From contig WGLZ01000036.1 in the NCBI GenBank assembly GCA_016471375.1, positions 13,564 through 45,563 of the forward strand: a DNA stretch of 32,000 bases. The letters run 5' to 3'. The stretch's first letter is position 1. Every line of letters begins with the position of its first letter. A model generated the notes under the pieces. The model worked only from the letters and a program-made list of their open reading frames with translations, did no database searches and had not been told where the DNA came from. Made by a program: the position numbers and the translations under genes. This document shows positions 1 through 32,000 of the stretch, one piece after another. The DNA is from Cyanobacteria bacterium RI_101 (lineage in GTDB: Bacteria; Cyanobacteriota; Cyanobacteriia; Cyanobacteriales; Microcystaceae).

Positions 1-384
1 GCCAAGGGGTTTCCCAGTCCCGTCGATGAAGGCGGAGCGGCAGAAGCTGACCCCCACCTGGGGCGAAGCCTCTAAATGGGCCACCTGTTTCGCTAATTTA
101 TCCGGCGCCCAGAGATCGTCAGAGTCCAAAAAGGCAAGGTAATCGCCCTGGGCGTAGCGAATTCCGGTATTGCGAGCGCCGGCTAAGCCCCGGTTTTTTT
201 GGTGAACAATCTTAATGCGGGGGTCTGAAAACTGTTGACAAATCTCGGCGCTCCGGTCAGGGGAATCGTCGTTGACGATAATGATCTCAAAGTTCTGATA
301 AGTTTGGGCCAACACCGACTCAATGGTTTGAGCGATATAGGCTTCGACGTTATAGACCGGGATAATGACAGAGACCAGTTTCAT
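1..384 (-). CDS. Glycosyltransferase family 2, first 128 codons only (the gene runs off the left edge of the window)
   Basis: Absent from the ORF track because there is no stop in the window. Reverse complement from the ATG at 384-382 reads MKLVSVIIPVYNVEAYIAQTIESVLAQTYQNFEIIIVNDDSPDRSAEICQQF...NRGLAGARNTGIRYAQGDYLAFLDSDDLW. This carries the canonical GT2 N-terminal signature (IIPxYN, NDxS, DxD). Confidence 0.85.
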   Translation of the reverse strand, partial: MKLVSVIIPVYNVEAYIAQTIESVLAQTYQNFEIIIVNDDSPDRSAEICQQFSDPRIKIVHQKNRGLAGARNTGIRYAQGDYLAFLDSDDLWAPDKLAKQVAHLEASPQVGVSFCRSAFIDGTGKPLG

Positions 385-518
385 GGGCGGCGTCCTCTGG
401 GAGCGGGGGAGAGCTTTGATTTCTTCTATCTTGAAGGGCGAGTGTTGACGATAACGTTTAAGCGGTTGTCTAACTTAGGCGAATTTGTCTAACCCGGCGC
501 TTTAACAAAGTTCAATCT

Positions 519-783
519 CCCCTAACCCCCCTTTGCAAGCTACCGTGTACACAGATCTACCCATCAGCCTCGTTTTGCCCCCCCAGCCCCCCAATTTTGG
601 GGGGAGTTCGGAGCCTTTCTGAGTTCAAAGTCCCCCAGAATTGGGGGATTGTCCCACTGAGCCTGCCGAAGTGTAGGGGGCGAGATAAGGTTAATGGCAA
701 AACCAAAGACTTGTGTGTCCACCGTAGCCGTTGATAAGGGGAAAATCCGGTTCCCCTCTTAGGAGGGGATTAAGGGGGGTTTG
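519..783. repeat. Composite intergenic repeat cluster: a CCCCTAACCCCCC...GGGG hairpin repeat interrupted by a MITE, followed by a CCCCTC-TTAG-GAGGGG hairpin unit
   Basis: The same sequence units recur at 12361-12546, 13264-13359 and 29401-29860. ORF 691..897(-) is built entirely from this repeat DNA. Confidence 0.8.
539..728. mobile_element. MITE copy A (~190 bp), termini GCTACCGTGTACACA / TGTGTGTCCACCGTAGC
   Basis: Terminal inverted repeats match those of the copies at 12382-12536 and 29564-29720. It has no coding capacity. Its interior carries a nested hairpin element (GGGGGATTGTCCCACTGAGC..GCCGAAGTGTAGGGGG), also seen at 13321-13359 and 29786-29840. Confidence 0.7.
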
Positions 784-837
784 TTTTTCTGACGCTACGC
801 CAAGGTTAATTGATATTATCCAGTTAAGCTCCGACTT

Positions 838-2049
838 ATGAGCAACCCCGAAATGCGTAGCTTGGAAGAAATTAACGAGAAAATTCGCCGCGGTCAAGCC
901 GTGGTCTGGACTGTGGAAGAGGTCAAAGCCCTAGCGCCGGAGTGGGGCGTCCGTAAAATCGCCGAAACGGTGGACGTCGTCTGCGCTGGAACTTTTGAAC
1001 CGTTAGAATCCGCCGGCGCCGTCATTAATCTGGGCCACACCGACCCCCCCATCAAAATTCGCCAATGCTGGTTGGAAGGCATTCCCGCCTACGGAGGCTT
1101 TGGCGCGGTGGATTTATACCTCGGCGTCACCGCTACGGCGGACTACGCCAGCGCCGAACTGGGCGACGGCGAGCAAAGGGGTCATTTCGCCCGAGAGGAG
1201 CGGGGAGGCGGCCACGTGATTGAGGATTTAATCAACGGCAAATCCGTTTCTCTACGGGCGCTGGGTCAGGGCACGGATTGCTATCCCCGAACCGCCCTGG
1301 AAACCCAAATCACCAAAGACTCCATTAACCAGTTTTACCTCTACAGCCCTAGGGGCCTTTACCAAAACTTTGTCGTGGGAGTCAACGGCGGCGAGCGCCT
1401 GCTCTATACTTACCTCGGCCCTCTGCAACCCCGGTTAGGGAACGCCGTCTATGGCAACCCCGGCGCGATTTCCCCGTTATTTAACGATCCGCTGTTAGAG
1501 GCGGTCGGCATTGGCACCCGCATTTTCTTGGGAGGCGGGGTGGGCTATGTGGCCTGGGAAGGCACCCAGCATTTTCCCCTGCAAAAGCGCCTCCCGAACC
1601 AAACCCCTATCGGCCCGGCGGCGACCCTAGCGCTGATTGGGGACGCGAAACAAATGCAGGGCTACTGGGTGCGGGGCTGTTATTTCAAAAACTACGGCGT
1701 TTCCCTAATGGTGGGAGTGGCGATTCCTCTGCCAGTTCTCAACGAAGGCGTGATCGCCCACTGCGCCGTCCGGGACGAAGAGATCGTGGCGCCGGTGATG
1801 GACTTTTCTATTCCTCGCCGGGTGCGCCCCACTTTTGGCTTGGTTAGTTACGCCCAACTGAAAAGCGGCCGCATGACCATTGAAGGCAAAACCGTGCGGG
1901 TGGCGCCGTTGGCCAGCATGGCCCGTTCCCGAGAGGCGGCCCAAACCCTGAAGACGTGGATTGAAGCCGGGGACTTTCTCCTAACGGCGCCGGTGGCTCC
2001 CCTACCCCGGGAGCGGGGATTTTTGCCCCAGGATCAACTGGCGAAATAA
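838..2049 (+). CDS. Homocysteine biosynthesis protein, DUF39/COG1900 family (L-aspartate-semialdehyde sulfurtransferase type)
   Basis: 403 aa. The N-terminus SLEEINEKIRRGQAVVWTVEEVK and the length match my recollection of the COG1900 family known from methanogens. No CBS pair at the C-terminus. Confidence 0.75.
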   Translation: MSNPEMRSLEEINEKIRRGQAVVWTVEEVKALAPEWGVRKIAETVDVVCAGTFEPLESAGAVINLGHTDPPIKIRQCWLEGIPAYGGFGAVDLYLGVTATADYASAELGDGEQRGHFAREERGGGHVIEDLINGKSVSLRALGQGTDCYPRTALETQITKDSINQFYLYSPRGLYQNFVVGVNGGERLLYTYLGPLQPRLGNAVYGNPGAISPLFNDPLLEAVGIGTRIFLGGGVGYVAWEGTQHFPLQKRLPNQTPIGPAATLALIGDAKQMQGYWVRGCYFKNYGVSLMVGVAIPLPVLNEGVIAHCAVRDEEIVAPVMDFSIPRRVRPTFGLVSYAQLKSGRMTIEGKTVRVAPLASMARSREAAQTLKTWIEAGDFLLTAPVAPLPRERGFLPQDQLAK

Positions 2050-2051
2050 CC

Positions 2052-3710
2052 TTAAAACTCGTAGTTAATTCCCAAGTACAGTCCGTCGTCCTGGATGTTA
2101 TTACCCCGGATATTGAGATTAATCAACGGCGGGGCGTAATCGACCCGCAGGGTTAACCCCGCAATGGGTTGGTAGATAAGCCCTAGACCTAAGGCCGCCA
2201 ACATATTTTTATTCGCGCCCAATTGGTTGGGATTGCCCGCCGCATTCCAAACGGCGCCGAAGTCAAAGAAAGGGGCCAACGTAAACACGGCCCGGTTTTC
2301 CCCGTCTTTCGCCAAGGCGATCCGGTCTTCGATAGAAAAACGGATACCATTATCCCCCGCCAGCACATTCTGACGGTAACCCCGCACGGATTGGGCGCCG
2401 CCGATCACAAATTGCTCCATGGGGAGGAGGGGGTTGGCGGAGAACTGCGTATCCAACTGCATAATCAAAAAATTATTCTCCGAGAACTGTCGTAGGCGCT
2501 GGACTTGTCCCAACCAGGCGAAAAAGTAGCCGTCGGGAATGGGCGCCGGATTATTGGTGGCGCCGAACAACCCGGTGCCGAATTTAAACTGGGAACGCAG
2601 GGCCCAGACGCCGACGCTATCCCGGACGGTGTAATCTTGGGTAAACAAAAGGGGAGAGCTTTCGCTGTAGCCCTCGGCGTTGGGGCCAAAGCCAAAGGGC
2701 ACCCCTTGATCTAGGGCGAAGGTTTGCCCGGAATCGTAGGAAACGCCGAAACTTAAGGCAAACTCTTCGTCGGGGGTGCGAATCAAAGGCTGGCGGTATT
2801 CCACCACATAGCGGTCCGAGTTGCCCCGAATATTGAGGGGAGTAAATTCGTCCGTCAGGATTTTATTGCGGTCAATGAAGACGCTGAAGGCGAGGGTTCC
2901 GTCTTGGGGGTTGAGGGGGACTTGGTAAAACGTGTCCAGGCGATAACTGTCTAGAAAAGCCTCCAAACGGGGACGGTAGGAAACAAAGACCGTGTCTCCC
3001 AAGCCCGTCGGGTTCCGATAACCGGCGCTGAGACTTAACTGGACAGCGCCGATACTCGGGGGAGAATAGTTATCTAATCCGACCTGACCAAAAACGGGAT
3101 TGGCTTCTACGACCCGAACAATTAAATCCGTTTTATTGCTTTCCGGCGCTGTCTCTTGGTCTTCTTCCCCCTCTAGAGCGGTTTCGGGCGGCCGCAAACT
3201 GGCGTCGATGGACTTAAATAAGGGATTCGCTTTGAGTAAACGGAGTTGAGTTTCTAAATTGCGAATATTCAGGGGCCGCCCGGCGCCGAGCGCGACCCGA
3301 TCTCGGATATAGGTTTCCAGCCGGGGAGCGCCTTCGATAACAACGGTTCCCAGTTCCCCCTCCCGGACGCTGAGGATAGCGACGCCCTCTGGGGAAAAGG
3401 AGTCGACCCGGGCCCGGGAGTTGAGATAACCCGCCTCTAGATACCGCTGGGTAATCCCCTGGGCTAGGCCCTCCAGTTGGGCTTCCGTCACCGGCTGGTT
3501 CAGAAGCGGCTCCCAGAGAGACCGCAAATCCGCCGCGGCGAAGGCGGTGTTACCCGTTAAACGGACTCCCCGCAGGATCGGGGCCGGCGCTTCTTCCCCT
3601 TGCGGTTCAGGGGCGGGGGGCAGTTGGGCCGGCGCGGGTAGTCCGGGCAGAAGGAGCAGACCCACCGCCAAGATCGCGTTCCCGGTTCCCCGGATCCATC
3701 GGTTGATCAT
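2052..3710 (-). CDS. ShlB/FhaC/HecB-family two-partner-secretion outer-membrane transporter (TpsB) with POTRA domain
   Basis: 552 aa. It has a signal peptide (ILAVGLLLLPGLPAPAQ), a POTRA-like N-terminal region (LRGVRLTGNTAF...), a beta-barrel-rich C-terminal half, and a terminal aromatic residue (...GINYEF). Confidence 0.8.
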   Translation of the reverse strand: MINRWIRGTGNAILAVGLLLLPGLPAPAQLPPAPEPQGEEAPAPILRGVRLTGNTAFAAADLRSLWEPLLNQPVTEAQLEGLAQGITQRYLEAGYLNSRARVDSFSPEGVAILSVREGELGTVVIEGAPRLETYIRDRVALGAGRPLNIRNLETQLRLLKANPLFKSIDASLRPPETALEGEEDQETAPESNKTDLIVRVVEANPVFGQVGLDNYSPPSIGAVQLSLSAGYRNPTGLGDTVFVSYRPRLEAFLDSYRLDTFYQVPLNPQDGTLAFSVFIDRNKILTDEFTPLNIRGNSDRYVVEYRQPLIRTPDEEFALSFGVSYDSGQTFALDQGVPFGFGPNAEGYSESSPLLFTQDYTVRDSVGVWALRSQFKFGTGLFGATNNPAPIPDGYFFAWLGQVQRLRQFSENNFLIMQLDTQFSANPLLPMEQFVIGGAQSVRGYRQNVLAGDNGIRFSIEDRIALAKDGENRAVFTLAPFFDFGAVWNAAGNPNQLGANKNMLAALGLGLIYQPIAGLTLRVDYAPPLINLNIRGNNIQDDGLYLGINYEF

Positions 3711-5082: not shown

Positions 5083-5667
5083 ATGGACGCAATGGCTTTT
5101 TTTCAGAAAAGCGCCGGCACTTGGCGCTCGCAACGGGCGACCCATCACCTGGCCTTTCGACGGGCGGAAACCGGGAGTTCCGAGATTTTTGTCGATCCCC
5201 TCGGCGCCGACGATCCCCGGGTGATTGAAATTTGCCAACTCCACGGCGTCGATCCCGCCGAAACCGTGGGCGGCGCTTTTGTGCGTTGGCAAGGCGTCAT
5301 GGCTTGGGATAAAGAGGATGAAAATCACGAAGGCACAACGGTGTTCGCCCTGATTCCCGACGCCGATAACCCCCAACAGGGCGCTCTGCTCCGGGAGCGG
5401 GGCTATGCCGAAATTGTCCCCATCGCCGGGCGCTATCAAATTGAACCCGACGGCGCTCTGCTCCTGATTACCGAGTACGAAACCATGACCACCCTAGAGC
5501 GATTTTGGTTTCCTAGCCCCAATTTACGGGTTCGCTCCAGCACGGTTCAACGCTTTGGGGGCTTCAACACCGCCACTTTTTGCACCGAAGTCCGGGAGGA
5601 CGCGGAAGGCGAGACCGGCGCCGGCCCGGAAGCGGCCGCGGAGTACGACGCGCTTGTGGGCTGGTAG
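5083..5667 (+). CDS. cpcS: Phycobiliprotein (phycocyanobilin) lyase, CpcS/CpeS family
   Basis: 194 aa. MDAMAFFQKSAGTWRSQRATHHLAFRRAETGSSEI...LLRERGYAEIVPIAGRY...TEYETMTTLERFWFPSPNLRVRSSTVQRFGGFNTATFCTE matches the conserved CpcS lipocalin-like lyase sequence. Confidence 0.85.
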   Translation: MDAMAFFQKSAGTWRSQRATHHLAFRRAETGSSEIFVDPLGADDPRVIEICQLHGVDPAETVGGAFVRWQGVMAWDKEDENHEGTTVFALIPDADNPQQGALLRERGYAEIVPIAGRYQIEPDGALLLITEYETMTTLERFWFPSPNLRVRSSTVQRFGGFNTATFCTEVREDAEGETGAGPEAAAEYDALVGW

Positions 5668-6801: not shown

Positions 6802-8091
6802 TTACTCGGCGCCGAAATATCCTAGGAGTTTGCCAGCGATCCTCTCGGCGCCGCCGGGAGGCCCTAAACGAGCGAGACCGTTGGCGGCCAAAATCCCTAA
6901 TTGACGGGGATCGGCGAGAATCTTCAGCAGTGCCGGGCCCGCCTCTTCCGGCGCGGACACAAGGATAACAGATTCTCCGAGGAGGAACGTTTGACGCCGG
7001 GCAAAGCTCTCGTTAAATTGGGGGCCGGCGCCGACGAGGGTAACGGCGGGTTTTCCGAGACCGACGACCTGTTCCGTAGCGGTTCCGGCCATGGCTAGGG
7101 CGGCGTCGGCCCAATGGAGGGCTTCGGGGTAGGCTCCCTGGGTGAGGATGAGGGACTGGTTCAACTTGCGTAAGGGCTTAATCTGGGGATCAAGACGGGC
7201 TAACTCGCCGGGGGGAAGTTGGGACTCCAAACGCCAGCCGTCCTCCAGCGCCAAATCCAGAAACGACTCTAGGGCCAATCCCGGCGCTAGCGCCGCTAGA
7301 GCCGCCACAGGGCGGGACGTCAAACCCGCTAAAGCTTTCAGTATTAAGCGCCAATTTTCATGGGCCTCCGGCGCTCGGGAACCCGGCAACAAGACTAATT
7401 TCAAAACGGCCGGGCTAATCTCCAGCAACGTCTCAAGATTGATCCGCGGCTCTAGTCCGTCCATCATCGGATTGCCGGCGTAGTCGTTAGAGAGGCCTAA
7501 TCGCTCTAAACCCTTGCAGGTGAGACTATCCCGGACTAAAACGCCCCGGCATCGGGGACGACTCAGGAGCCAGCGCTCCCAGGGATAATAATCCGAGGCT
7601 CGGCGCCAGAAACCGCTCTCGCCCCGGAGGTAGTAGTCGGATTTAGCGGTGCCCACAAAGGCGTAGTCGGCGCCGCTTCCCCAAGCCATCAACAAGGGGA
7701 CAATATCTCCCAGGGCCGCCACTTTCCCCCCGTCTCGGGCCCACCCTTGGATCGATTGGAACTGCCGGAGGGTCAAGGAACCTAAACCGCTTTTAAGATC
7801 CCGCCACAGTTGACGACTATCCATATAAATAAAGCCGCCGGAGGGTAGGGATTGCCCGTCTAAAAGAAACGGCGCGTCTAAAGCTCGATAAGCCCGACCT
7901 TCTCCCACCAGAGGTAAGACGGCATAGTGATGCTCCGGCGCTAATTGTTGTAAACAGCGAAGAACTTTAGCGGCGATCTGGTCTTCCCCGTGGCCATTGC
8001 TGACGAGAAGCAGATTCAGCGCCGGTTTTTGAGCCAGAACCATGGTTAGCCTAATTCTTTCTCTACCTTCATCAATCGGTTGAGAAAGCAT
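6802..8091 (-). CDS. Lipid-A-disaccharide synthase-related protein (TIGR03492-like, LpxB-related GT-B fold); the true start is probably the ATG at 8043
   Basis: LNLLLVSNGHGEDQIAAKVL is the typical N-terminus of this family, which favours the internal Met17 (8043). A perfect TATAAT on the minus strand at 8100-8105 sits only 9 nt from the 8091 ATG, which also argues for the downstream start. Confidence 0.7.
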   Translation of the reverse strand: MLSQPIDEGRERIRLTMVLAQKPALNLLLVSNGHGEDQIAAKVLRCLQQLAPEHHYAVLPLVGEGRAYRALDAPFLLDGQSLPSGGFIYMDSRQLWRDLKSGLGSLTLRQFQSIQGWARDGGKVAALGDIVPLLMAWGSGADYAFVGTAKSDYYLRGESGFWRRASDYYPWERWLLSRPRCRGVLVRDSLTCKGLERLGLSNDYAGNPMMDGLEPRINLETLLEISPAVLKLVLLPGSRAPEAHENWRLILKALAGLTSRPVAALAALAPGLALESFLDLALEDGWRLESQLPPGELARLDPQIKPLRKLNQSLILTQGAYPEALHWADAALAMAGTATEQVVGLGKPAVTLVGAGPQFNESFARRQTFLLGESVILVSAPEEAGPALLKILADPRQLGILAANGLARLGPPGGAERIAGKLLGYFGAE

Positions 8092-8099
8092 GACTAGGG

Positions 8100-8105
8100 A
8101 TTATA
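8100..8105 (-). promoter_or_regulatory. Candidate -10 box (TATAAT on the minus strand) for the lpxB-related gene
   Basis: Exact hexamer. It is positioned so that the transcript would start near 8093, giving a ~50-nt leader to the ATG at 8043. Confidence 0.3.
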
Positions 8106-8212
8106 CAAAATTTTCGTATGCTGTTCTCGGATCTCTTGCGCCGTCGCGGCCAGATCGACCATGGCAAAGCGGATTTCATGGTTTTGGATCAGAACGGACT
8201 CGTTCAGCCGAC

Positions 8213-8371
8213 AAAGAGGCCTTAACTGTTTTGGAGGTCAGTCTCGGCATTGGTCATTCTGATACCTAAACTGTTTGCACCAATTATAAGCGGTTTTCAC
8301 AGTAGTTAAAAAATGATTGATGACACAGGGTTAGACCCACCCCTAACCCCTTCAAGGAGGGGAACCCGAAA
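8213..8371 (+). pseudogene. Decayed 3' end of a paralogous TPR/NLR gene plus trailing hairpin repeat (left copy of the direct repeat flanking the NLR gene)
   Basis: Hand alignment to 10906-11064 gives 133/159 identical bases. It translates as KEALTVLEVSLGIGHSDT*TVCTNYKRFSQ*LKND*, against the intact REALAIFEVSLGTGHSDTRTVRANYERFLQQLNNE* of the NLR C-terminus. Two internal stops are present. Confidence 0.8.
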
Positions 8372-8436
8372 TATAATAGTCGTGTTCTATAATCTCGTTT
8401 TGGAAAGTTGTCCTATGATGAAGGAGGTTTGTCATT

Positions 8437-8865
8437 GTGGGAAAATTAGCTATGGATCCCATTACTGCGGCGTTACTGATGATTCTGGGCATTTACAGTA
8501 GTGGCATTGTCAATAAGGCTGGCGAAGATACTTGGGATGTCGGTCGTCAACTGCTAAGAAGGAAATTGGCTAATACCCCCACAGGCAAGGCGTTAGCCGC
8601 AGGGCAAGAACCGAATCCAGATCAAGCGCTTATAGATGTAGAAGCCATCAGCGCCGATCCTGAGCTAGAAGAACTTAAGTCTCAACTTCAGACGTTGCTG
8701 GCGCAGAACGAAGAGTTTAAACGACAAGCAGAAGCCATTAAAAAAAACATTCAAATTAATCGTGATCAGGCTCAGGGCTATCTGTTTGAGGGTGAAGTCA
8801 AATCACAATTTCTTGGCGGTACCCATATTCATCATCACGGCGCTGAGCGGCCTAAAACGGATTGA
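8437..8865 (+). CDS. 142-aa N-terminal module of the NLR-like locus (hydrophobic N-terminal helix, coiled-coil, G/Q/N-rich tail); ends at a TGA that is in frame with the NB-ARC ORF
   Basis: SD AAGGAGG (8421-8427) lies 9 nt before the GTG at 8437 (alternative ATG at 8452). Elements: DPITAALLMILGIYSSGIV hydrophobic helix; ELEELKSQLQTLLAQNEEFKRQAEAIKK amphipathic helix; NIQINRDQAQGYLFEGEVKSQFLGGTHIHHHG tail. No family recognised. Confidence 0.6.
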   Translation: MGKLAMDPITAALLMILGIYSSGIVNKAGEDTWDVGRQLLRRKLANTPTGKALAAGQEPNPDQALIDVEAISADPELEELKSQLQTLLAQNEEFKRQAEAIKKNIQINRDQAQGYLFEGEVKSQFLGGTHIHHHGAERPKTD

Positions 8866-8943
8866 CTGGAGTCGCCGGAGTCGAGAGCGCCGGTAAAGTT
8901 CAAGGCTCCCAATAATTTACGGAGAAAGTCAGTCGCCGCTTTT

Positions 8944-11013
8944 GTGGGGCGAGAAAAGCAACTGACGAAACTTCATCAGTGGTTAACGGCGGGGCAACGG
9001 GTCTCGGTCTGGGGTATGGGCGGCCTTGGTAAGTCGGAGTTGGTTCTGCAATATTGGGCCCGTCACAGTCAGGATTACCCCAGCGGGCTGATCTGGTTAG
9101 AAGCGCCGGAGGAGGCGGGTCAGGATATTGTCGTTTTTGGGAGCAACTGTCTCCATTTAGAACCCTCCCCAGAGTTGCCCATAGCCCAGAAGGTGGATCG
9201 GGTCTGGGCGCAATGGCCGGGGGAAGACCGGGTTTTGGTGGTGGCGGATAATCTCAACACGTTGGACGATTACCGTCTGGTTGAGAAGTTTTTACCCAGC
9301 GCCGACCGTTTTTGCGTCTTGGCTACCAGTCGGGTCAGGTTAACGGGGTTGAAGGAGTTGCCATTGGAGGAGTTGTCTCTGCCGGAAGCGGTGGAACTTT
9401 TGGAGCGCCGGAGTCAAGCACCGGAGCGGAGAAGCTGGGATCGGGCCGAAGCGGCAACTCTTTGTCAACGCTTGGGGCGCTTACCCCTGGCTATCGCCTT
9501 GGCGGGCAGTTACTTGGCCATAGATCCCAATTTGAGTTTGGGGGAGATCAGCGCCGAGCTTACGGCCAGGGGATTGGAGGCGCAGTATTTTCAAAACCCG
9601 GATTTGACGGTAGCCCAAAGGGGACTGAACGCGGTTTTCGATTTATCCTGGCAAGCCCTCGATCCACCGACCCAACGCTTGGCCGCTCTCTTAGCGATGT
9701 TTGCGGCGGCCCCTATTGAATGGCGTTTGGTGGAAAAGATCTTAATTTCTTCAGGCAACCCGACTTTAGACCAATTTAGTTTAAGAGATCTCAGGCAAAC
9801 TCTGCTCCGCTACGCTTTATTACAGTCTGTGGAATTACCGGAAGAGGGGTTATCCGGCTATCAATTGCATCCCCTGATCTGGGACTATTTCCGGCGCCAG
9901 ATTCCTAATTGTCTGGATCAGCCCGCCCGACAGGCCTTTGTTACGGTGCTGGTCGCGGAGGCAGAAACAATTGCCTACAATGCGCCCCTAGAAGACTATG
10001 AAAAGGCGCGGGCTTCTATTCCCCATATTGCGGAAGTAGCGGAAACTTGGGCGAACGACTTGGCTGATGAGGATCTGATTACGCCCTACACAGGACTCAG
10101 TCGCTTTTATGAAGGTTTTCTTGACTATCAACTGTCTGAAGTTTACTTAAATAAAGGTCTCTCCCTATCCCGACGGCGCCTACCCCAAAACCATCCCGAT
10201 ATTGCCGCCGCCCTCAACAACCTAGCGGTACTGTATAAGTTCTTAGGGAGGTATAATGAAGCTGAGCCTCTCTATACAGAAGTGTTATTAATTCTCTCCA
10301 AATTTTTGCCAAAAAATGATCCAATTTTGGCCATCACTCTCAACAACTTAGCAGAACTATATCAAGTGCAAGAAAAATATAAAGAAGCGGAGCTTCTCTA
10401 CAAAAATGCTCTAGATATTGACTTAAAATCCTTACCTGCTAGTTATCTCAATTTAGCAACTCACCTTAACAATTTAGGTGGATTGTACCAAGCGCAGGGT
10501 AGATATAGCGAGGCGGAACCTCTCTACACAGAAGGGCTGAGCATCATCCGTCAAATCTTACTCCCCGATCATCCCCAATTAGCACGTCACCTCAACAACT
10601 TGGCTGGTCTATACCAAGCTCAAGGTCGGTATAGTGAAGCGGAATCCCTCTACACAGAGGCGTTAGCTATTGACCGTCAGTCTTTAGTTTCCAATCATCC
10701 TTACTTAGCCAGTCATCTCCACAATTTGGGATTTCTGTACAGATCTCAAGAGAAATACAGTGAAGCAGAATCTTTCTACAGAGAGGCTATAGCCATTGAT
10801 CGGCAATCCTTACGCCCCAATCATCCTCAATTAGCCAATCATCTGAACAATTTGGCATTATTGTGCGAAATGCAAAAAAAATACAGGGAAGCGGACCCCC
10901 TCTACAGAGAAGCTTTGGCTATTTTTGAAGTCAGCCTCGGCACTGGTCATTCTGATACCCGAACCGTTCGCGCCAATTACGAGCGGTTTTTACAGCAGTT
11001 AAACAATGAATGA
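8944..11013 (+). CDS. STAND NTPase: NB-ARC domain + six KLC-type TPR repeats (NLR-like). The homologous reading frame actually continues upstream to 8866
   Basis: P-loop GMGGLGKS, Walker B RVLVVADNL, LATSR (RNBS-B/TTR-like), GRLPLAIALAG (GLPL-like) and QLHPLIWDY (MHD-like). These are followed by 42-aa repeats of the form HPxLAxxLNNLAxLYxxQGRYSEAEPLYxEAL. Codons 8866-8943 (…APNNLRRKSVAAF) complete the usual FVGRE pre-P-loop motif. Confidence 0.9.
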   Translation: MGREKQLTKLHQWLTAGQRVSVWGMGGLGKSELVLQYWARHSQDYPSGLIWLEAPEEAGQDIVVFGSNCLHLEPSPELPIAQKVDRVWAQWPGEDRVLVVADNLNTLDDYRLVEKFLPSADRFCVLATSRVRLTGLKELPLEELSLPEAVELLERRSQAPERRSWDRAEAATLCQRLGRLPLAIALAGSYLAIDPNLSLGEISAELTARGLEAQYFQNPDLTVAQRGLNAVFDLSWQALDPPTQRLAALLAMFAAAPIEWRLVEKILISSGNPTLDQFSLRDLRQTLLRYALLQSVELPEEGLSGYQLHPLIWDYFRRQIPNCLDQPARQAFVTVLVAEAETIAYNAPLEDYEKARASIPHIAEVAETWANDLADEDLITPYTGLSRFYEGFLDYQLSEVYLNKGLSLSRRRLPQNHPDIAAALNNLAVLYKFLGRYNEAEPLYTEVLLILSKFLPKNDPILAITLNNLAELYQVQEKYKEAELLYKNALDIDLKSLPASYLNLATHLNNLGGLYQAQGRYSEAEPLYTEGLSIIRQILLPDHPQLARHLNNLAGLYQAQGRYSEAESLYTEALAIDRQSLVSNHPYLASHLHNLGFLYRSQEKYSEAESFYREAIAIDRQSLRPNHPQLANHLNNLALLCEMQKKYREADPLYREALAIFEVSLGTGHSDTRTVRANYERFLQQLNNE
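10192..10947 (+). repeat. Six tandem 126-bp (42-aa) TPR-coding units inside the NLR gene
   Basis: The exact 126-bp periodicity was verified in frame (10192 + 6x126 = 10948). The units are diverged at synonymous sites, so they are not recent duplications. Confidence 0.85.
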
Positions 11014-11064: not shown

Positions 11065-11068
11065 CTTT

Positions 11069-12367: not shown

Positions 12368-12381
12368 CCCCCCTTTAACAA

Positions 12382-22832: not shown

Positions 22833-22841
22833 AGTTTTTTT

Positions 22842-22927: not shown

Positions 22928-22928
22928 T

Positions 22929-23735
22929 TTATCCAAAGCGCCCGCTGACGTAATCCTTGGTTTCCTGTTGTTGGGGATTGCCAAAGATATTTTCCGTGCG
23001 GTCGTATTCAACGAGATAACCCACTTTACTGCCTTTGCCCGTGGCTTCGGCGTTGAAGAAGGCGGTCACGTCCGCCACCCGGGTGGCCTGTTGCATGTTA
23101 TGGGTGACGATGATGATGGTGTACTTCTCTTTGAGTTCGTTCATCAACTCCTCCACCTTGAGGGTGGAGATGGGATCCAGCGCCGAGCAGGGTTCGTCCA
23201 TCAGGAGGACTTCCGGTTGCATGGCGATGGCTCGGGCGATACAGAGGCGCTGTTGTTGCCCCCCGGAGAGGGAAAAACCGCTGGCTTGGAGTTTATCCTT
23301 GACCTCGTCCCAGAGCGCCGCCCGCCGCAGGGAGGATTCCACCAATTCCTGTAGGTCGCCCCGGTAGTTGTTGACCCGAGCGCCGTAAACCACGTTATCA
23401 AAAATGGTTTTGGGGAAAGGGTTAGGTTTTTGAAAAACCATGCCGATACTTTTGCGCACGGCCACCGGATCCACATCCGGCGCGTAGAGGTCTTGACCGT
23501 GGTACTCAATGCGCCCGTCCACCCGAAAACCGTGGACTAAATCATTAAGGCGATTAAAGCACCGGAGAATGGTGCTTTTTCCGCAACCGGAGGGGCCGAT
23601 GAAGGCGGTGACTTGATTTTTGGGAATGCCTAGAGTCACGTCCCGCACCGCCCGGTAGGCGCCGTAGTAGATATCGATATTATGGGTGCGGATAACCGTC
23701 TGTTCATTGCCGACGGGCGCGTCTTGGGGATTCAT
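22929..23735 (-). CDS. pstB: Phosphate ABC transporter ATP-binding protein PstB (proximal copy)
   Basis: 268 aa. It has the same motif set as the distal copy and high amino-acid identity to it. Confidence 0.93.
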
Positions 23736-23756
23736 AGGATTAACTCCAGAGGAGGG

Positions 23757-24620
23757 TTAGAAGGATTTGCGACGGGTGGCGAGACGAGCGCCGACGCTGG
23801 TGGCGAGAACTAAAAACACCAAAATCAGGGACGCGGCCCAGGCCAATTGTTGTTGGGGAGCGAAGGGCACCGTGGCGAAGTTATAGACCAGCACCGCCAG
23901 GGTGGCGATAGGCTCCTTGACTCCCTTGGGCCAGAAGTTGGAAAACAGCGCCGTGAAAATGAGAGGGGCGGTTTCCCCCGCGGCCCGGGCGATGGCCAAG
24001 GTGACGCCGGTCAAAATCGAAGGCAGGGCGGCGGGTAAGACGATAAACAACACCGTTTGAAATTTGTAGGCGCCGACTCCGAGAGCCGCCCAGCGGATAT
24101 CCTGGGGCACGATTTGCAGGGCCTCGTCCGTGGTGCGGATAATCGTGGGGAGCATCAACACCGCCAGGGCGGTGCCGCCGGCGATGGCGGAAAAGCCTAA
24201 AATCCCCGACGCCACAAAGAGACCGTAGGCGAAAATCCCGGCGATGATGGAGGGCACCCCGCTGAGGATGTTGGTGGCGAAGCGGACTCCCCGAGCGATT
24301 TGGTTATCGTCGCTAAATTCCGAGAGGTAAATAGCCGCTAAGACGCCGATGGGCACGGCGATAGCCACGGCGATGGAGACCACGATCAGGGTGCCCATAA
24401 TGGCGTTGGCCACCCCGCCGCCGCTCAACCCCGGCGGCGGCGGCAGTTTGGTGAAGAGGTCAAGATTAATGCGGCTCACGCCTTGGATGGTGACGTAAAT
24501 CAACACCGCGAAGAGGGGAATCAGGGTCAGGAGCAAGCAAGCGCCGGCGACCCCGGTCATGGCTAGCCCCACTAGGGTGCGGGGACTAGAGCTTTGTTTT
24601 TTAAGATTGGCGACGGTCAT
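23757..24620 (-). CDS. pstA: Phosphate ABC transporter permease PstA
   Basis: 287 aa with 6 TM segments and an EAA-like loop (IARAAGETAPLIFTA). It sits between pstC and pstB. Confidence 0.9.
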   Translation of the reverse strand: MTVANLKKQSSSPRTLVGLAMTGVAGACLLLTLIPLFAVLIYVTIQGVSRINLDLFTKLPPPPGLSGGGVANAIMGTLIVVSIAVAIAVPIGVLAAIYLSEFSDDNQIARGVRFATNILSGVPSIIAGIFAYGLFVASGILGFSAIAGGTALAVLMLPTIIRTTDEALQIVPQDIRWAALGVGAYKFQTVLFIVLPAALPSILTGVTLAIARAAGETAPLIFTALFSNFWPKGVKEPIATLAVLVYNFATVPFAPQQQLAWAASLILVFLVLATSVGARLATRRKSF

Positions 24621-24626
24621 GGGCGT

Positions 24627-25583
24627 TTAGGAGTATTTGGCTTTGACTTTATTGACAATAAACTCAGCAAGCACGTTGACCACGAGGGTGAGGAGCATGA
24701 GCACCAAACCAGCGTACATCAGCGCCGCCACCTGCATCCCCGAAGCTTCGGCGAATTGGTTCGCCAGCAGAGAGGCGATGGTATTGGCGGGGTCTAAAAG
24801 GGAGGCGCTCAGCTTGTTGGAGTTGCCGATCAACATGGTCACGGCCATGGTCTCCCCCATCGCTCGCCCCAGCGCCAACATAATGCCGCCGACAATGCCG
24901 GAGAAGGCCGCCGGCACCAGCACTCGGAAAATAGTCTCCCAACGGGTGGCGCCTAAACCCAGGGACGCTTGACGCAGTTCCGGGGGTAGAGAAGCGAGGG
25001 AATCCCGGGCGATGGCGGTGATAATGGGCAAAATCATGATGGCCAACACCACCGAAGCGGGCAACATCCCCGGCCCCGCCGGTTTGGAGCTAAAGAGGGG
25101 AAACCAACCCAAGGTTTCATTGAGCCAGAAGCCCAGAGGGCGCAGGAGCGGAATTAAGACAAAAATACCCCAAAGCCCGTAAACAACGCTGGGAATCGCC
25201 GCCAGCAGTTCCACCAGAAAAACCAAGACAATGCGAATGTTCAGAGGAATGAAATCTTCGCTCAAAAAAACCGCGGTGCCTAAGCCGAGGGGCACGGCGA
25301 TTAACAGCGCCAACAGAGAGTTCACTAGAGTGCCCACAATCACCGCCAGGGCGCCGTACTGATTCCGAACGGGGTCCCAGGTGTTGTTAAACAAAAAGCC
25401 GAAGTTGTATTCAACGATGGCGGGCCAGGCCCGGATCGTCACCACCAGGGCGATGAGCAGTAAGATGAGGCCGATGCCGACGGCGAAAACTAGCGTTAAG
25501 CTCCGGAATCCCGTCTCTAGGTTCTTTTCTAGGGCGGAGCGAGACTGGAGGGCCGAAGGGCGAGAATAGGAAGGGGCGACCAT
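24627..25583 (-). CDS. pstC: Phosphate ABC transporter permease PstC
   Basis: 318 aa, multi-TM, with an EAA-like loop (LGRAMGETMAVTMLIGN). It sits between pstS and pstA. Confidence 0.9.
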   Translation of the reverse strand: MVAPSYSRPSALQSRSALEKNLETGFRSLTLVFAVGIGLILLLIALVVTIRAWPAIVEYNFGFLFNNTWDPVRNQYGALAVIVGTLVNSLLALLIAVPLGLGTAVFLSEDFIPLNIRIVLVFLVELLAAIPSVVYGLWGIFVLIPLLRPLGFWLNETLGWFPLFSSKPAGPGMLPASVVLAIMILPIITAIARDSLASLPPELRQASLGLGATRWETIFRVLVPAAFSGIVGGIMLALGRAMGETMAVTMLIGNSNKLSASLLDPANTIASLLANQFAEASGMQVAALMYAGLVLMLLTLVVNVLAEFIVNKVKAKYS

Positions 25584-25646
25584 ATTAAATCAATTGGAGT
25601 TAACCAGAATAGCCCCCCGACAGGAGGGCTGTTAACGAAGAAAGAG

Positions 25647-26807
25647 CTATTTAACCTTGATTTGGAAATCGGGGCTAATTTGATCCGCGACCGCCGCCAC
25701 TTTTTCCACCACGTTGGGAGGCAGGGGAATATAGCCTAGGGCGGCGCTTTGCTGTTGTCCCGTGGTCAGACCGTACTGCACCATGGCTTCGATCCCCTTG
25801 GCCTTCATGGGATCGTCGTAGGTTTTGTACATCAGCATCCAGGTGTAAGTGACGATGGGATAGGATTGTTCCCCGTCGGGGTTAATAATAAAAGCCCGCA
25901 GGTTTTCCGGCAGTTCCACCGTGGCGAGGGTCGCCGCCGCCGTGGTTTCGTCGGGGACGACAAACTGACCGGCTTTATTTTGCAGGGTCGCCATGGCCAG
26001 GTTATTGTTTTTGGCGTAGCCGTACTCGACGTAGCCAATGGCGCCTTCGTTTTGTTGAATGTTGGCGGTCACGCCTTCGTTGCCTTTGCCGCCGATAAAT
26101 TTGCCTTTAGCCGTGGGCCACTGGACGCTCTTGCCGTCGCCGATGCTCTCCTTCCACTTGGGGCTGACGGCGCTCAGGTACTTGGTGAAGACCCCGGTGG
26201 TGCCGCTACCGTCGGAGCGGTGAACAACCGTGATGGGCGCGTCGGGCAATTTCAGGTCGGGGTTATCCGCGACCAGTTTGGGGTCGTTCCATTTGGTGAT
26301 TTCCCCCATGAAAATGGCCACTTGATTTTCCTGAGAGAGTTTCAATCCCTCCGCGCCGGGAAGGTTGTAGGCGAGGACGATACTGCCTGCGGTCATGGGA
26401 AGCATCAGCACGCCCTTGGCCACCTTGGCGATTTCCTCGTCCTTCATGGCGGTGTCGCTAGCGCCGAAATCCACGGTGCCGGCGGTAAATTGCTCCACCC
26501 CGGCGCCGCTTCCCACGGACTGATAGTTGACTTGCAGGTTCGGCACCTCTTGGTTCAAACCCACGAACCAGTTTTGATAAAGGGGCGCGGGAAAGGTCGC
26601 CCCGGCGCCGGTGAGGGCCACTTGGGCGGTGATGGCTTCTTTGATATTGGCGCTCATGGAGGGCGCTCCGCCAGTTTGTTCGCCGCCGCCGGTTTCCGTG
26701 CCTGTTTGCTCGCCGCCGCCACCGCCGCAGGCCGCTAGACTGAGGGACAGGGTCAGGGCCGCGAGAGTCGGCGCCAAGCGGAAGGTTGGGAATTGAGATC
26801 TAATCAT
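25647..26807 (-). CDS. pstS: Phosphate-binding lipoprotein PstS
   Basis: 386 aa. It has a lipobox (LSLAAC), a G/E/T-rich linker, then the PBP type-2 motifs GAGATFPAPLY, YQSVGSGAG and SDGSGTT. Confidence 0.9.
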   Translation of the reverse strand: MIRSQFPTFRLAPTLAALTLSLSLAACGGGGGEQTGTETGGGEQTGGAPSMSANIKEAITAQVALTGAGATFPAPLYQNWFVGLNQEVPNLQVNYQSVGSGAGVEQFTAGTVDFGASDTAMKDEEIAKVAKGVLMLPMTAGSIVLAYNLPGAEGLKLSQENQVAIFMGEITKWNDPKLVADNPDLKLPDAPITVVHRSDGSGTTGVFTKYLSAVSPKWKESIGDGKSVQWPTAKGKFIGGKGNEGVTANIQQNEGAIGYVEYGYAKNNNLAMATLQNKAGQFVVPDETTAAATLATVELPENLRAFIINPDGEQSYPIVTYTWMLMYKTYDDPMKAKGIEAMVQYGLTTGQQQSAALGYIPLPPNVVEKVAAVADQISPDFQIKVK

Positions 26808-26903: not shown

Positions 26904-29400
<2,497 letters not shown>

Positions 29401-29881: not shown

Positions 29882-30499
29882 ATGTCTCAATGGTTGGCGG
29901 ACTGGATTCCCTCAATAATGAATCAACTGGGCTACTTTGGTATCGCCCTCTTGATGTTTCTCGAAAATCTGTTTCCGCCCATCCCCTCGGAATTGATTAT
30001 GCCCTTGGCGGGATTCACGGTTTCCCAGGGCAAAATGGATTTTATCGGCGCCGTCCTAGCGGGTTCTGTGGGCACAATTCTCGGCGCTTACCCTTGGTAT
30101 TATCTCGGCAAATGGGTCAACGAAGAGCGCCTAGAACACCTGGCGGATAAGTATGGCAAATGGCTCAGTCTCGGCGCTAAAGATATTCACAAAGCCAACG
30201 CTTGGTTTAACCGTCACGGCGGCAAGGCGGTCTTTTTTTGCCGGTTAGTGCCCGGCGTGCGCACGTTAATTTCCCTGCCCGCGGGGATTAACGCCATGCC
30301 CCTGCTTCCCTTTACCCTCTACAGCAGTTTGGGAACTCTCCTCTGGGTGCTCTTTTTAACCGGCGCCGGTTATAAGTTGGGGGATCACTATGAATTGGTG
30401 GACGAATATTTAGGGCCGGTCTCTAAAATTGTTCTCGCTAGCTTAGTTATTTTCGCCCTCCTCTGGATCGTCCGTAAACAATGGCGTAAAGCCAGTTAG
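29882..30499 (+). CDS. DedA/SNARE-associated family membrane protein
   Basis: 205 aa. GYFGIALLMFLENLFPPIPSELIMPLAG and the FFCRLVPGVRTLISLPAG motifs are typical of DedA. Confidence 0.85.
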   Translation: MSQWLADWIPSIMNQLGYFGIALLMFLENLFPPIPSELIMPLAGFTVSQGKMDFIGAVLAGSVGTILGAYPWYYLGKWVNEERLEHLADKYGKWLSLGAKDIHKANAWFNRHGGKAVFFCRLVPGVRTLISLPAGINAMPLLPFTLYSSLGTLLWVLFLTGAGYKLGDHYELVDEYLGPVSKIVLASLVIFALLWIVRKQWRKAS

Positions 30500-30514
30500 C
30501 GCCGTCAATAGCCT

Positions 30515-31297
30515 ATGTTTCTCTCCAGTCTCCTCGCCATCTTCCGCAAAGAATTTTTGAGCTACTTCGCCTCCCCCTTCGCCTATGTGATCGGCGCCGT
30601 TTTTTGGCTGATTTCCGGGCTGTTCTTTGGGGTGATTCTCGATAATATTATTCAAAACGCCGAATTTACTCGTCAGGCGGGGATGAACACTCCCATTGAT
30701 ATTGCCGGGGAATTTCTCGGCAGTTACCTCGGGGTAATTATTTTCCTGCTGTTAGTCCTTCTGCCGGCGCTGTCCATGGGTCTCTACGCCGAGGAAAGGA
30801 AGCGGGGCACTTTGGAATTACTGGCCACCTCCCCGGTGACCAATTGGGGGGTGGCGCTGGGAAAACTCCTGGGCGTTTTTACCTTTTTCACCGTTTTAAT
30901 GGTTCCCCTCTGGATTTATCAAGCCGTCATCTTCAGCGCCGCCGATCCCCCCTTTCCCATTGCTCTGATCCTGAGCGCCAACGGCGCTGTTTTGCTGGTG
31001 GCGGCCTCGATTTTATCCTTGGGGATGTTCATTTCTTCCCTCACCGACAGCGTCATCATCGCCTACATTTTGACCTTTGTGGGGGTTTTCGCGCTCTGGA
31101 TTGTGGATGTTTTCGCCCGGAGAGTGGGGGGAACCGCGGGGGATATTTTAGCTTCCCTGTCCTTGTTTCAGCCCTATAATGATTTGGTGAGCGGCGTGGT
31201 CAAAACCCCGGCCCTCGTTTTATTCGCCAGTTATATTTTCCTCGGCGTGTTTCTCACCGCCCAATCCATCGAGGCGCTCCGCTTCCAGCGCGCTTAA
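30515..31297 (+). CDS. ABC-2 type transporter permease (GldF-like); no cognate ATPase in the window
   Basis: 260 aa with 6 TM segments. LYAEERKRGTLELLATSPV is the characteristic ABC-2/GldF-like loop. Confidence 0.75.
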   Translation: MFLSSLLAIFRKEFLSYFASPFAYVIGAVFWLISGLFFGVILDNIIQNAEFTRQAGMNTPIDIAGEFLGSYLGVIIFLLLVLLPALSMGLYAEERKRGTLELLATSPVTNWGVALGKLLGVFTFFTVLMVPLWIYQAVIFSAADPPFPIALILSANGAVLLVAASILSLGMFISSLTDSVIIAYILTFVGVFALWIVDVFARRVGGTAGDILASLSLFQPYNDLVSGVVKTPALVLFASYIFLGVFLTAQSIEALRFQRA

Positions 31298-31336
31298 ACA
31301 AGCTCATGTTTGGAAAGCTTCTAAAATCTCCAAGTA

Positions 31337-31412
31337 AATCCCCCTAAATCCCCCTTTGCAAGGGGGACTTTGAGAAGTTTTCCCCCCCTTTCAAAGGGGG
31401 GCTAGGGGGGAT
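31337..31412. repeat. Second copy of the 76-bp double-hairpin palindromic element
   Basis: AATCCCCCTAAATCCCCCTTTGCAAGGGGGACTTTG...CCCCCCCTTTCAAAGGGGGGCTAGGGGGGATC. Compare 16804-16879. Confidence 0.85.
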
Positions 31413-31460
31413 CAAACTGGGATGTTGATCCTTGTAAAACACCCTCTAAGGACGGCGCCG

Positions 31461-32000
31461 ATGACTCTTACCCTCACCCGTTGGAATTTGGAAGATTACC
31501 ATCAATTAATCTCCGCCGGTCTTCTGGACGGGCGCCGGGTCGAATTACTCAACGGTTTACTGGTCGAAATGCCGCCGGAAAGTCCCCTTCACGCCGAGTT
31601 AAACACCTCCATCGCCCAGCGGCTCCAAAACGGCCTCGGTTCTCAAACAATTGTTCGTAACGCTAAGCCCATTAGTCTAGAGGACAGCGAGCCTGAACCG
31701 GATATCGCCCTCGTTCGGCCCGGCTCCTATCGATTGGCTCACCCCGGCCCGGCCGATATTTTTCTGCTCATTGAGTTTGCTCAGAGCAGTTTAGCTAAGG
31801 ATACTCAGGAAAAAGCGGCGCTGTATGCCGGCGCCGGGATTCTCGACTACTGGGTGGCGGATTTAGCCGAGGGACAACTTTGGGTCTTCCGCCAACCGGC
31901 GCTGGGGGGCTATCAAGCCTTAGAAAAATTAACGAGCGGTCAAATCTCGCCCCTCGTTTTTCCCGATCTTAGCCTTTCCGTGGCGGAGTTAGTGAGTTAG
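31461..32000 (+). CDS. Uma2 (DUF820) family putative endonuclease
   Basis: EDYHQLISAGLL...RVELLNGLLVEMPPESPLHAE...PEPDIALVR...EKAALYAGAGILDYWVADL has the PD-(D/E)xK-like Uma2 pattern. The ATG at 31461 is preferred over the track start at 31422, which abuts the repeat. The stop is the last codon of the window. Confidence 0.85.
   Translation: MTLTLTRWNLEDYHQLISAGLLDGRRVELLNGLLVEMPPESPLHAELNTSIAQRLQNGLGSQTIVRNAKPISLEDSEPEPDIALVRPGSYRLAHPGPADIFLLIEFAQSSLAKDTQEKAALYAGAGILDYWVADLAEGQLWVFRQPALGGYQALEKLTSGQISPLVFPDLSLSVAELVS

Follow-up and report, generated by a model that had tools for sequence, protein, structure and literature searches.

HIP1 (GCGATCGC) is a highly iterated palindrome (HIP) of most cyanobacteria, and the solitary methyltransferases acting on it are DmtC/M.Ssp6803I, which makes 5-methylcytosine (m5C) in m5CGATCG, and DmtA/M.Ssp6803III, which makes Gm6ATC. 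To our knowledge, the origin and function of HIP1 have been open for some thirty years, and the exceptions to HIP1 known to us concern single genomes remote from tractable model organisms. The present analysis concerns a window of 32 kb (the whole stretch of DNA analysed, contig C36:13564-45563) from the genome of Cyanobacteria bacterium RI_101 and a palindromic octamer, CGGCGCCG, which is iterated there in place of HIP1.

As a class, HIPs were described as short palindromic words occurring at roughly 1,000-2,000 copies per Mb, and alternative HIPs were found only in genomes in which HIP1 is low or absent (Elhai 2015, PMC4390886). The closest described case is Calothrix PCC 7103, in which GGCGCC is the iterated word, GrCGyC methyltransferases are present, HIP1 is low and the CGATCG enzyme has been lost (PMC4390886). 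Other replacement words are GGGATCCC in Thermostichus/Synechococcus JA-3-3Ab and JA-2-3B'a, CAGGCCTG in Synechococcus PCC 6312, rCCGGy in Oscillatoria PCC 10802 and GCsGC in Cyanothece PCC 7822 (PMC4390886, PMC13756078). Calothrix PCC 7103 thus provides a precedent for an alternative HIP built around GGCGCC, and CGGCGCCG adds to this class. As an iterated word, CGGCGCCG itself is mentioned neither in a study of 97 genomes (PMC4390886), nor in a survey of 389 genomes (PMC13756078), nor in the results of a full-text literature search.

Replacement of HIP1 by CGGCGCCG

The RI_101 genome comprises 3.755 Mb in 102 contigs with a GC content of 54.6%, and CGGCGCCG is the most frequent of all its octamers, with 4,834 sites or 1.29 per kb (1,287 per Mb). 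An exact search of the window found 36 sites, against 1.67 on average and never more than 6 in dinucleotide-preserving shuffles, and no copy of HIP1. An earlier, sequence-only reading of the window had counted about 36 sites and no HIP1, and had proposed that the genome uses an iterated palindrome other than HIP1, which the genome-wide count bears out. Sixteen of its 18 example coordinates were exact, and two were off by 10 bases (the sites lie at 13120-13127 and 28341-28348, not at 13130 and 28351). Sites were found in all reading frames, in genes of both strands and in intergenic DNA, as that reading had described, but the frames are used unevenly: 29 window sites lie in the frame xCG-GCG-CCG, four in xxC-GGC-GCC-G, one in CGG-CGC-CG and two between genes. 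Genome-wide, the corresponding numbers are 2,711, 1,150, 382 and 591 (non-coding); 88% of all sites lie within genes, and 64% of the coding sites use the first of these frames.

The observed/expected ratio of CGGCGCCG is 42 under a Markov model of order 0, 16 under order 2 and 3.6 under order 3. A hexamer-based model (order 5), which the sequence-only reading had named as a possible refutation, nearly predicts the count (3,588 expected, ratio 1.35; order 6, ratio 1.08), but this comparison is circular, as the sub-words owe their abundance solely to the motif; CGGCGC ranks first among the hexamers of the genome, at 4-8 times expectation. Independent null models back the enrichment. When synonymous codons were shuffled gene by gene in 2,809 crudely called genes, with the protein sequence and per-gene codon usage preserved, 605 +/- 21 coding sites were obtained versus 4,249 observed (about 7-fold). 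In non-coding DNA (757 kb, GC 48%), CGGCGCCG is again the top octamer, with 590 sites and an observed/expected ratio of 30.7. The reversed-letter control GCCGCGGC occurs 418 times in the genome. Density climbs with local GC, from 0.48 per kb below 45% GC to 1.75 per kb above 59%. HIP1 is below expectation, with 74 copies genome-wide and 51 coding sites versus 156 in synonymous shuffles. As to whether CGGCGCCG is the top over-represented palindrome, a check proposed earlier, it is the commonest octamer, but GTGTACAC (108 sites, observed/expected 30) has the higher ratio, the only palindromic octamer to do so.

Fourteen species genomes of the genus, RI_101 included, were compared. Ten congeners carry 2,281-3,434 HIP1 sites and 10-33 CGGCGCCG sites. 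The counts for RI_101 and two further species, G002 and G005, are 74, 27 and 62 for HIP1 and 4,834, 2,887 and 3,443 for CGGCGCCG. Another species, G007, has 134 HIP1 copies (a residual observed/expected ratio of about 6) and 32 of CGGCGCCG, and no strong octamer of any kind was found in a 300-kb sample of it; it looks like the state after loss of HIP1 without replacement. In the 2026 survey, Synechocystis sp. LKSZ1 is given as a strain that lost HIP1 (PMC13756078). The genus is Synechocystis, as plasmid stretches in G008 and G011 match those of Synechocystis sp. PCC 6714 and PCC 7338 with 100% identity; a related-loci scan with ArgRS had given no relative above 68% identity. Identity to RI_101 over aligned DNA is 93% for G002, 89% for G005 and about 73% for G007 and the HIP1-bearing species. 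CGGCGCCG has replaced HIP1 in a three-species clade that GTDB places in Synechocystis. Since the synonymous shuffles, the non-coding ratio and the 11 congeners with 10-33 sites all agree, the excess in RI_101 is real and goes beyond composition and coding, a point settled by three independent nulls.

In a phylum-wide sample of 400 genomes, a comparable specific excess of CGGCGCCG was seen in no other genome; the next best counts, against the control, were 1,070 versus 252 and 219 versus 6. High-GC genomes of the phylum showed no excess over the reversed-letter control.

Structure, origin and conservation of the sites

The CGGCGCCG sites of the window are as follows, with the gene strand and, where given, the state in G002 and G005.

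1014-1021, plus-strand gene, frame xCG-GCG-CCG; conserved in G002 and G005
1985-1992, plus-strand gene, frame xxC-GGC-GCC-G; conserved in G002 and G005
2252-2259, minus-strand gene; conserved in G002 and G005
3281-3288, minus-strand gene; conserved in G002 and G005
5202-5209, plus-strand gene, cpeS-like; conserved in G002 and G005
5616-5623, plus-strand gene; same in G005, TAGCGCCG in G002
6807-6814, minus-strand gene; CAGCGCCG in both G002 and G005, gained in RI_101
6846-6853, minus-strand gene; same in G002, CGGCACCG in G005
7026-7033, minus-strand gene; same in G002, CGGCGCCC in G005
7668-7675, minus-strand gene; conserved in G002 and G005
11340-11347, plus-strand gene; CGGCGCCT in G005
12034-12041, plus-strand gene; conserved in G005
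13093-13100, minus-strand gene; conserved in G005
13120-13127, minus-strand gene; CGGCATCG in G005
14289-14296, minus-strand gene
14680-14687, intergenic
15286-15293, argS, frame CGG-CGC-CG; conserved in G005
16242-16249, argS; CGGCGCTG, the common T variant, in G005
16944-16951, minus-strand gene
17221-17228, minus-strand gene
18089-18096, minus-strand gene, metF-like
18143-18150, minus-strand gene, metF-like
19652-19659, minus-strand gene, trpS-like; TCGCGCCG in G005
20757-20764, histidine kinase gene
21906-21913, intergenic
26501-26508, minus-strand gene, pstS-like
26603-26610, minus-strand gene, pstS-like
26942-26949, plus-strand gene
27146-27153, plus-strand gene
27491-27498, plus-strand gene
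28341-28348, plus-strand gene
30046-30053, plus-strand gene
30361-30368, plus-strand gene
30592-30599, plus-strand gene
31453-31460, plus-strand gene
31829-31836, plus-strand gene
1-32000 (whole window), 81 further copies of the half-site CGGCGCT/AGCGCCG, including in both palindrome-free gaps

Over 10 bases on either side of CGGCGCCG, the information content does not exceed 0.06 bit; the word therefore stands as an octamer by itself, with no longer repeat around it, and its spacing is close to random (coefficient of variation 1.10). Among the single-base variants, strong enrichment is confined to the transition at position 7, equivalent to position 2 (CGGCGCTG/CAGCGCCG; 4,265 copies, observed/expected 14 overall and 20 in non-coding DNA). 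Single variants at positions 1-4 amount to 0.35, 0.51, 0.35 and 0.11 of the CGGCGCCG count. The heptamer CGGCGCT, with 10,464 copies and uninformative flanks, is 6.5-14-fold enriched whatever the next base (about 20-fold in non-coding DNA at most), CGGCGCC is enriched a mere 2-2.6-fold when A, C or T comes next, and no enrichment is seen when a purine follows CGGCGC (observed/expected 0.3-0.9). The double variant CAGCGCTG, with 32 sites and an observed/expected ratio of 0.4, does not exceed chance. A pyrimidine comes next after 93% of all CGGCGC hexamers, and CGGCGCCG makes up 51% of the GGCGCC sites, being 16-fold enriched versus 2-2.6-fold for the other flanks.

The same pattern is seen in the rates of change between species. 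The average rate is 2-3 times that of positions 1 and 3-6 (in both classes) and of position 8 (in the palindrome), and position 7 changes at roughly this average or faster (6-9% versus 6.9% for G002; 10-16% versus 10.6% for G005). CGGCGCT is as conserved between species as the palindrome, and the grammar of CGGCGC plus pyrimidine is common to RI_101, G002 and G005 and missing in G007. From the enrichment pattern and the rate of change at position 7 it follows that what is conserved is a strand-asymmetric unit, CGGCGC plus pyrimidine, and that the palindrome consists of two such units overlapping on opposite strands. It is possible, if doubtful, that this strand-specific heptamer is also the unit that is driven, the palindrome being the case in which both strands carry it. 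If this were true, HIPs in general would consist of half-elements that overlap and are each read on a single strand, by methylation-guided repair or uptake, for instance, and the young, still-maturing switch in the model genus Synechocystis would expose a mechanism that mature HIP1 hides.

CGGCGCT showed no strong replication polarity: its plus-strand fraction per contig (0.41-0.79, standard deviation 0.06) tracks gene orientation and not GC skew, and the 61% of copies on the sense strand are explained by gene orientation. A polar architecture motif of the Chi or KOPS (FtsK-orienting polar sequence) type was ruled out, as the orientation bias follows genes and not replication. Sixty-two pairs of CGGCGCCG in RI_101 lie exactly 6 bases apart and read CGGCGCCGGCGCCG.

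To trace the origin of the sites, 232 of those in RI_101 were mapped onto orthologous genes of G007, G012, G011 and G008 (average 75% amino acid identity). The outgroup orthologues carry CGGCGCCG at only one of the 232 positions. Their octamers mostly differ at 2-4 of the 8 bases (mean about 3.4) with no change in length, and 31% involve no amino acid difference. Because the differences are base substitutions without length change, the sites were not inserted but mutated in place; they were built by point substitutions that are mostly silent or neutral.

Once present, sites are better conserved than neutral positions by a factor of 2-4, four-fold synonymous ones included. Whole-site conservation is 0.82 between RI_101 and G002 and 0.67 between RI_101 and G005, against neutral expectations, derived from overall divergence, of 0.56 and 0.41. 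At four-fold third positions, divergence from G002 is 6.0% in palindromes and 4.4% in CGGCGCT versus 17.7% elsewhere, and divergence from G005 is 13.1% and 12.7% versus 25.9%; third positions of the codon GCG differ in 0 of 46 cases within palindromes versus 123 of 863 outside. These substitution comparisons rest on samples of G002 and G005, and the three-way coverage is a few kb. HIP1 was likewise found to be conserved above neutral expectation (Xu et al. 2018, PMC5861425).

The word seems to be still increasing in RI_101. At 36 places the palindrome in RI_101 corresponds to the T variant CGGCGCTG in a relative, and at 14 places the reverse holds. At site 6807, the one polarised case, both G002 and G005 read CAGCGCCG, which by parsimony places the A-to-G change, and with it the gain of the palindrome, in RI_101.

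The two longest site-free stretches of the window named in the sequence-only reading were recovered at 7676-11339 and 21914-26500. Its suggestion that such gaps mark acquired DNA fails for both: they carry CGGCGCT half-sites at normal density (about 2.5 per kb; 9 and 12 copies, respectively), the pst gap (21914-26500) has a typical GC content of 0.568, and neither is evidence of foreign DNA. The number of sites per 5 kb is mildly over-dispersed (variance 9.3, mean 6.5), and as the genome has 71 gaps of at least 3.6 kb versus 48 expected, two long gaps in one window are only mildly unusual. The suggestion fared better for the longest CGGCGCCG-free stretches of the genome (8-11 kb), which have a GC content of 42-47% and few half-sites:

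C54:25497-36529
C82:36005-46279
C18:1-9475
C72:13037-20997

The C54 and C72 stretches (GC 0.47) hold 6 and 5 of the 74 HIP1 copies, and are candidate islands recently received from HIP1-bearing cyanobacteria. Near-absence of CGGCGCCG together with HIP1 clusters flags likely imported islands in genomes of the clade. The C72 stretch lies between genes for a 1,111-amino-acid ATPase-like and a 1,262-amino-acid helicase-like protein and looks like a defence island.

The window also contains short intergenic repeats at 514-741, 12357-12556, 13235-13400, 13784-13882, 14783-14953 and 16733-16881. Each matches dozens of G002 and G005 contigs at 80-96% identity; they belong to small dispersed repeat families found throughout the clade.

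Methyltransferases and explanations of the word

The 14 genomes were scanned for cytosine-5 (C5) methyltransferases with Pfam PF00145. An enzyme of about 422-424 amino acids is found in HIP1-rich species only and is missing in RI_101, G002, G005 and G007. By its position in the genus it is presumably the orthologue of M.Ssp6803I/DmtC, which makes m5CGATCG (PMC6105098). In RI_101 the C5 enzymes, M1 and M2 of them lying outside the window, are the following.

C70:9412-10686, plus strand, M1, solitary C5-methyltransferase of 424 amino acids
C57:32874-33899, minus strand, M2, solitary C5-methyltransferase of 341 amino acids (PF00145, 230 bits)
C55:3050-4483, M3, C5-methyltransferase shared with HIP1-rich species and uninformative

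M2 is predicted to be an enzyme of the BsaHI/HgiDI/HgiGI (GRCGYC) family. Its relatives (65-73% identity; 71-75% in the target-recognition domain) directly adjoin PF09519 RE_HindVP endonucleases with a C-terminal SPERRFD motif, and since these belong to the GRCGYC family, M2 would make GR(m5C)GYC, including GG(m5C)GCC. M.BsaHI places the methyl group on the central cytosine within its GRCGYC site (PMC2413257). In RI_101, M2 adjoins mnmG and a NUDIX gene. No RE_HindVP relative was found anywhere in the genome by tblastn and GRCGYC sites show no avoidance (observed/expected 1.4-2.7), so M2 is solitary. The gene is syntenic in G002 (93% identity), and in G005 its first 23 codons stand at the end of contig C25 (96% identity). 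No orthologue was found among the C5 loci of the other species, where the best match reached 41% over the N-terminal half. A search for a methyltransferase with GGCGCC specificity, as the sequence-only reading had advised, thus yields a candidate in all three CGGCGCCG-rich species and not among the C5 loci of the other 11.

Within the genus, M1 is likewise confined to RI_101, G002 and G005, with 95% amino acid identity among them, and is under purifying selection (ratio of non-synonymous to synonymous change, pN/pS, 0.13-0.18). It has no endonuclease neighbour in RI_101, and its target-recognition domain is no more diverged than the catalytic core. A diverged DmtC orthologue was ruled out, as identity to the enzyme of the congeners is about 25%. 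Comparison with PDB and NCBIfam gave generic C5-methyltransferase matches only. Relatives with 55-63% identity occur in Microcystis, Gloeomargarita, Geminocystis and others; that of Microcystis is solitary and adjoins the psbEFLJ cluster, and those of Geminocystis, Cyanobacterium stanieri and PCC 7502 are paired with a conserved PD-ExK protein of 250 amino acids. Palindrome avoidance in two genomes with this pair pointed to no single site, and GGCGCC and GCGC are not avoided there. Locus-tag arithmetic suggests that the Geminocystis relative is not Elhai's GrCGyC enzyme. The PD-ExK neighbour (L033:5281-6054 in Geminocystis herdmanii, with a PD...ELK motif and relatives in Cyanobacterium stanieri PCC 7202 and Synechococcus PCC 7502) had no sequence match in Pfam, NCBIfam or PDB, and its AlphaFold model (predicted local distance difference test, pLDDT, 89) gave weak, generic nuclease matches only; it is likely an uncharacterised restriction endonuclease family.

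Further methylation and repair genes were surveyed as well. Dam-type enzymes are retained in RI_101. Vsr endonucleases are absent from RI_101 and G005, and the sole Vsr-type match in the genus lies in G002 (contig C269:4681-4845, 58 bits); Vsr-type short-patch repair was dropped as a candidate, there being no Vsr in RI_101. At C53:88264-94612, a gene for an N6/N4-type methyltransferase of 711 amino acids is followed by an open reading frame of 1,152 amino acids, which looks like a type III restriction-modification system. The single PF01555 gene of RI_101 is type III mod-like, with a large open reading frame after it, and an N4/N6 methyltransferase acting on CGGCGCCG is unlikely, the word having no adenine. 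Many six-base palindromes are nearly absent from the genome (CTCGAG 10, CGTACG 12, CTGCAG 20, GAGCTC 22, CAGCTG 40 and TTCGAA 53 copies; observed/expected 0.01-0.07, with GCGCGC at 0.15 and CGCGCG at 0.08), which probably reflects present or past restriction systems.

A moderately probable explanation is that CGGCGCCG is a lineage-specific HIP that replaced HIP1 after a change of solitary C5 methyltransferases. The clade would have lost the methyltransferase of the HIP1-rich congeners, taken as M.Ssp6803I/DmtC with its m5CGATCG target inside HIP1, and gained M2, predicted to methylate the central CpG of GG(m5C)GCC, and M1 as a further solitary C5 enzyme. A step that reads methylation, whether in mismatch repair or in DNA uptake or recombination, would then favour changes that create the methylated word and disfavour those that destroy it, so that the new word would accumulate, and HIP1, no longer methylated, would decay. 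A methylation-reading bias of mismatch repair is reportedly Elhai's proposal for HIP words. As a guess, M1 may supply the specificity that is missing from M2. The link to methylation is drawn from gene content and predicted specificity.

Several points weigh against this explanation. The three CGGCGCCG species are one clade, so the link between methyltransferase and word rests on one event, and any gene gained on the branch of the clade correlates equally well with the word. Enzymes of the GRCGYC family are common in cyanobacteria without such a word (PMC4390886), hence M2 alone is not sufficient. Its predicted site leaves the outer C and G of the octamer unexplained, and since GGCGCT is not a GRCGYC site, so are the 10,464 copies of CGGCGCT. 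Twelve other genomes with M1 relatives (56-63% identity) were found, none of them rich in CGGCGCCG. RI_101 lacks a Vsr endonuclease, and no context-specific C-to-T hot spot, as m5C deamination would produce, was found among the three species beyond codon effects. G002 is 67% complete and G005 92%, which makes absence calls in them weak, and M2 in G005 is represented by 23 codons.

Alternatively, the word could be a tag read by a DNA-binding protein of transformation or recombination, that is, a DNA uptake sequence (DUS) or self-recognition signal kept by selection or uptake-driven drive, with the methyltransferase changes incidental or modulatory. A density of about 1 per kb, the graded enrichment of near-misses and the asymmetric core are more in keeping with a binding site for a protein than with all-or-none methylation of a site, and synonymous positions inside the word are conserved. 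HIP1 was reported to raise transformation efficiency in Synechococcus PCC 7002 and Synechocystis PCC 6803 (bioRxiv 10.1101/2024.09.10.611283), and was proposed as an uptake sequence in the 2026 survey (PMC13756078); both speak for a tag. However, the reported effect depends on methylation, and for this reason the proposal overlaps with the methyltransferase explanation. No candidate receptor was identified in RI_101, strand polarity is not strong (61% of CGGCGCT on the sense strand, following gene orientation) and spacing is close to random (coefficient of variation 1.10). On balance, a tag of this kind is considered rather unlikely as the primary cause.

Less probable still is a biased repair that does not depend on methylation, in which a lineage-specific mismatch or short-patch enzyme converts towards CGGCGC and the methyltransferases are passengers. 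Such a bias would fit the asymmetry of the core, the toggling of position 7 at a near-neutral rate and the surplus of changes towards the palindrome in RI_101, and also the fact that the predicted M2 site does not cover the outer bases. Yet no candidate enzyme was identified, neither RI_101 nor G005 has a Vsr-type endonuclease, and under a classic short-patch system the T variant should become depleted, whereas it is 14-20 times enriched.

It is very improbable that the excess is a by-product of base composition or of codon or amino acid usage as GC rose from about 47% to 55%. The rise of density with local GC (0.48 to 1.75 per kb), the 64% of coding sites in the frame xCG-GCG-CCG and the near-prediction by the high-order Markov model (1.35 at order 5) could be read in this way, but synonymous shuffles yield 605 sites versus 4,249, the highest observed/expected ratio (30.7) is found in non-coding DNA at 48% GC, GCCGCGGC stands at 418 versus 4,834, and high-GC genomes of the phylum have no excess over that control. 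Spread on a dispersed repeat or mobile element (a miniature inverted-repeat transposable element, MITE, or a repetitive extragenic palindrome, REP) has a negligible chance of being correct: several short dispersed repeat families do exist in the genome and are seen in intergenic DNA of the window, but the flanks hold at most 0.06 bit over 10 bases on each side, 88% of sites lie within genes, and orthologous outgroup positions hold unrelated octamers, mostly 2-4 bases off, with no length change.

Comparison with known systems

Measured by what is described for HIPs, CGGCGCCG has a density of 1,287 per Mb, and HIP1 is down to 74 copies in the same genome versus 2,281-3,434 in ten congeners. A methyltransferase (M2) is predicted to aim at part of the word, GGCGCC within GRCGYC, and conservation is above neutral (four-fold sites 6.0% versus 17.7% for G002 and 13.1% versus 25.9% for G005). 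Like HIP1, CGGCGCCG is a GC-rich palindromic octamer present about once per kb in coding and non-coding DNA, without conserved flanks and conserved above neutral expectation; for both words a solitary methyltransferase is predicted on the inner part, and the predicted methylated base stands in a G-m5C-G context. Unlike HIP1, it contains no adenine, hence the palindrome is not open to Dam-type methylation, and its predicted methylated cytosines form one central CpG pair, whereas those of HIP1 are four bases apart. The conserved unit of CGGCGCCG is asymmetric. Single variants of HIP1 at positions 1-4 amount in typical genomes to roughly 0.13, 0.07, 0.05 and 0.007 (Elhai, PMC4390886), whereas near-misses of CGGCGCCG are far more abundant (0.35, 0.51, 0.35 and 0.11).

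The replacement words GGGATCCC, CAGGCCTG, rCCGGy and GCsGC are likewise lineage-specific, occur in HIP1-poor genomes and each contain a methyltransferase target, but differ in sequence. With the DUS of Neisseria and the uptake signal sequence (USS) of Haemophilus, CGGCGCCG shares a density of about 1 per kb, a strand-asymmetric core, graded imperfect copies and accumulation by point substitution; those sequences, however, are 9-12 bases long, non-palindromic and read by a known competence receptor, and none was identified for CGGCGCCG.

A replacement inside the genus of Synechocystis PCC 6803 allows the origin of such words to be studied as a natural experiment within one genus. The comparison set consists of close relatives that kept HIP1, of G007, which lost HIP1 and shows no new word, and of three species sharing the word at 89-93% identity. 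The list of candidate causes is short, with one methyltransferase lost and two gained, and the asymmetric grammar is a constraint for any model of mechanism.

Calothrix PCC 7103 shares with this clade the hexamer core, the loss of HIP1 and of the CGATCG methyltransferase, a C5 enzyme of the GrCGyC family and a density of 1,000-2,000 per Mb. There, however, the hexamer GGCGCC is the unit and CAGGCGCC the top octamer, whereas in RI_101 the outer C and G count as well. Two GrCGyC enzymes are present in Calothrix, one plus an unrelated C5 enzyme in RI_101, and the other GRCGYC sites are depleted in Calothrix and not in RI_101. In addition, CGGCGCCG is found in a model genus whose other members include close relatives with HIP1. 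The constellation known from Calothrix recurs independently in the Synechocystis clade.

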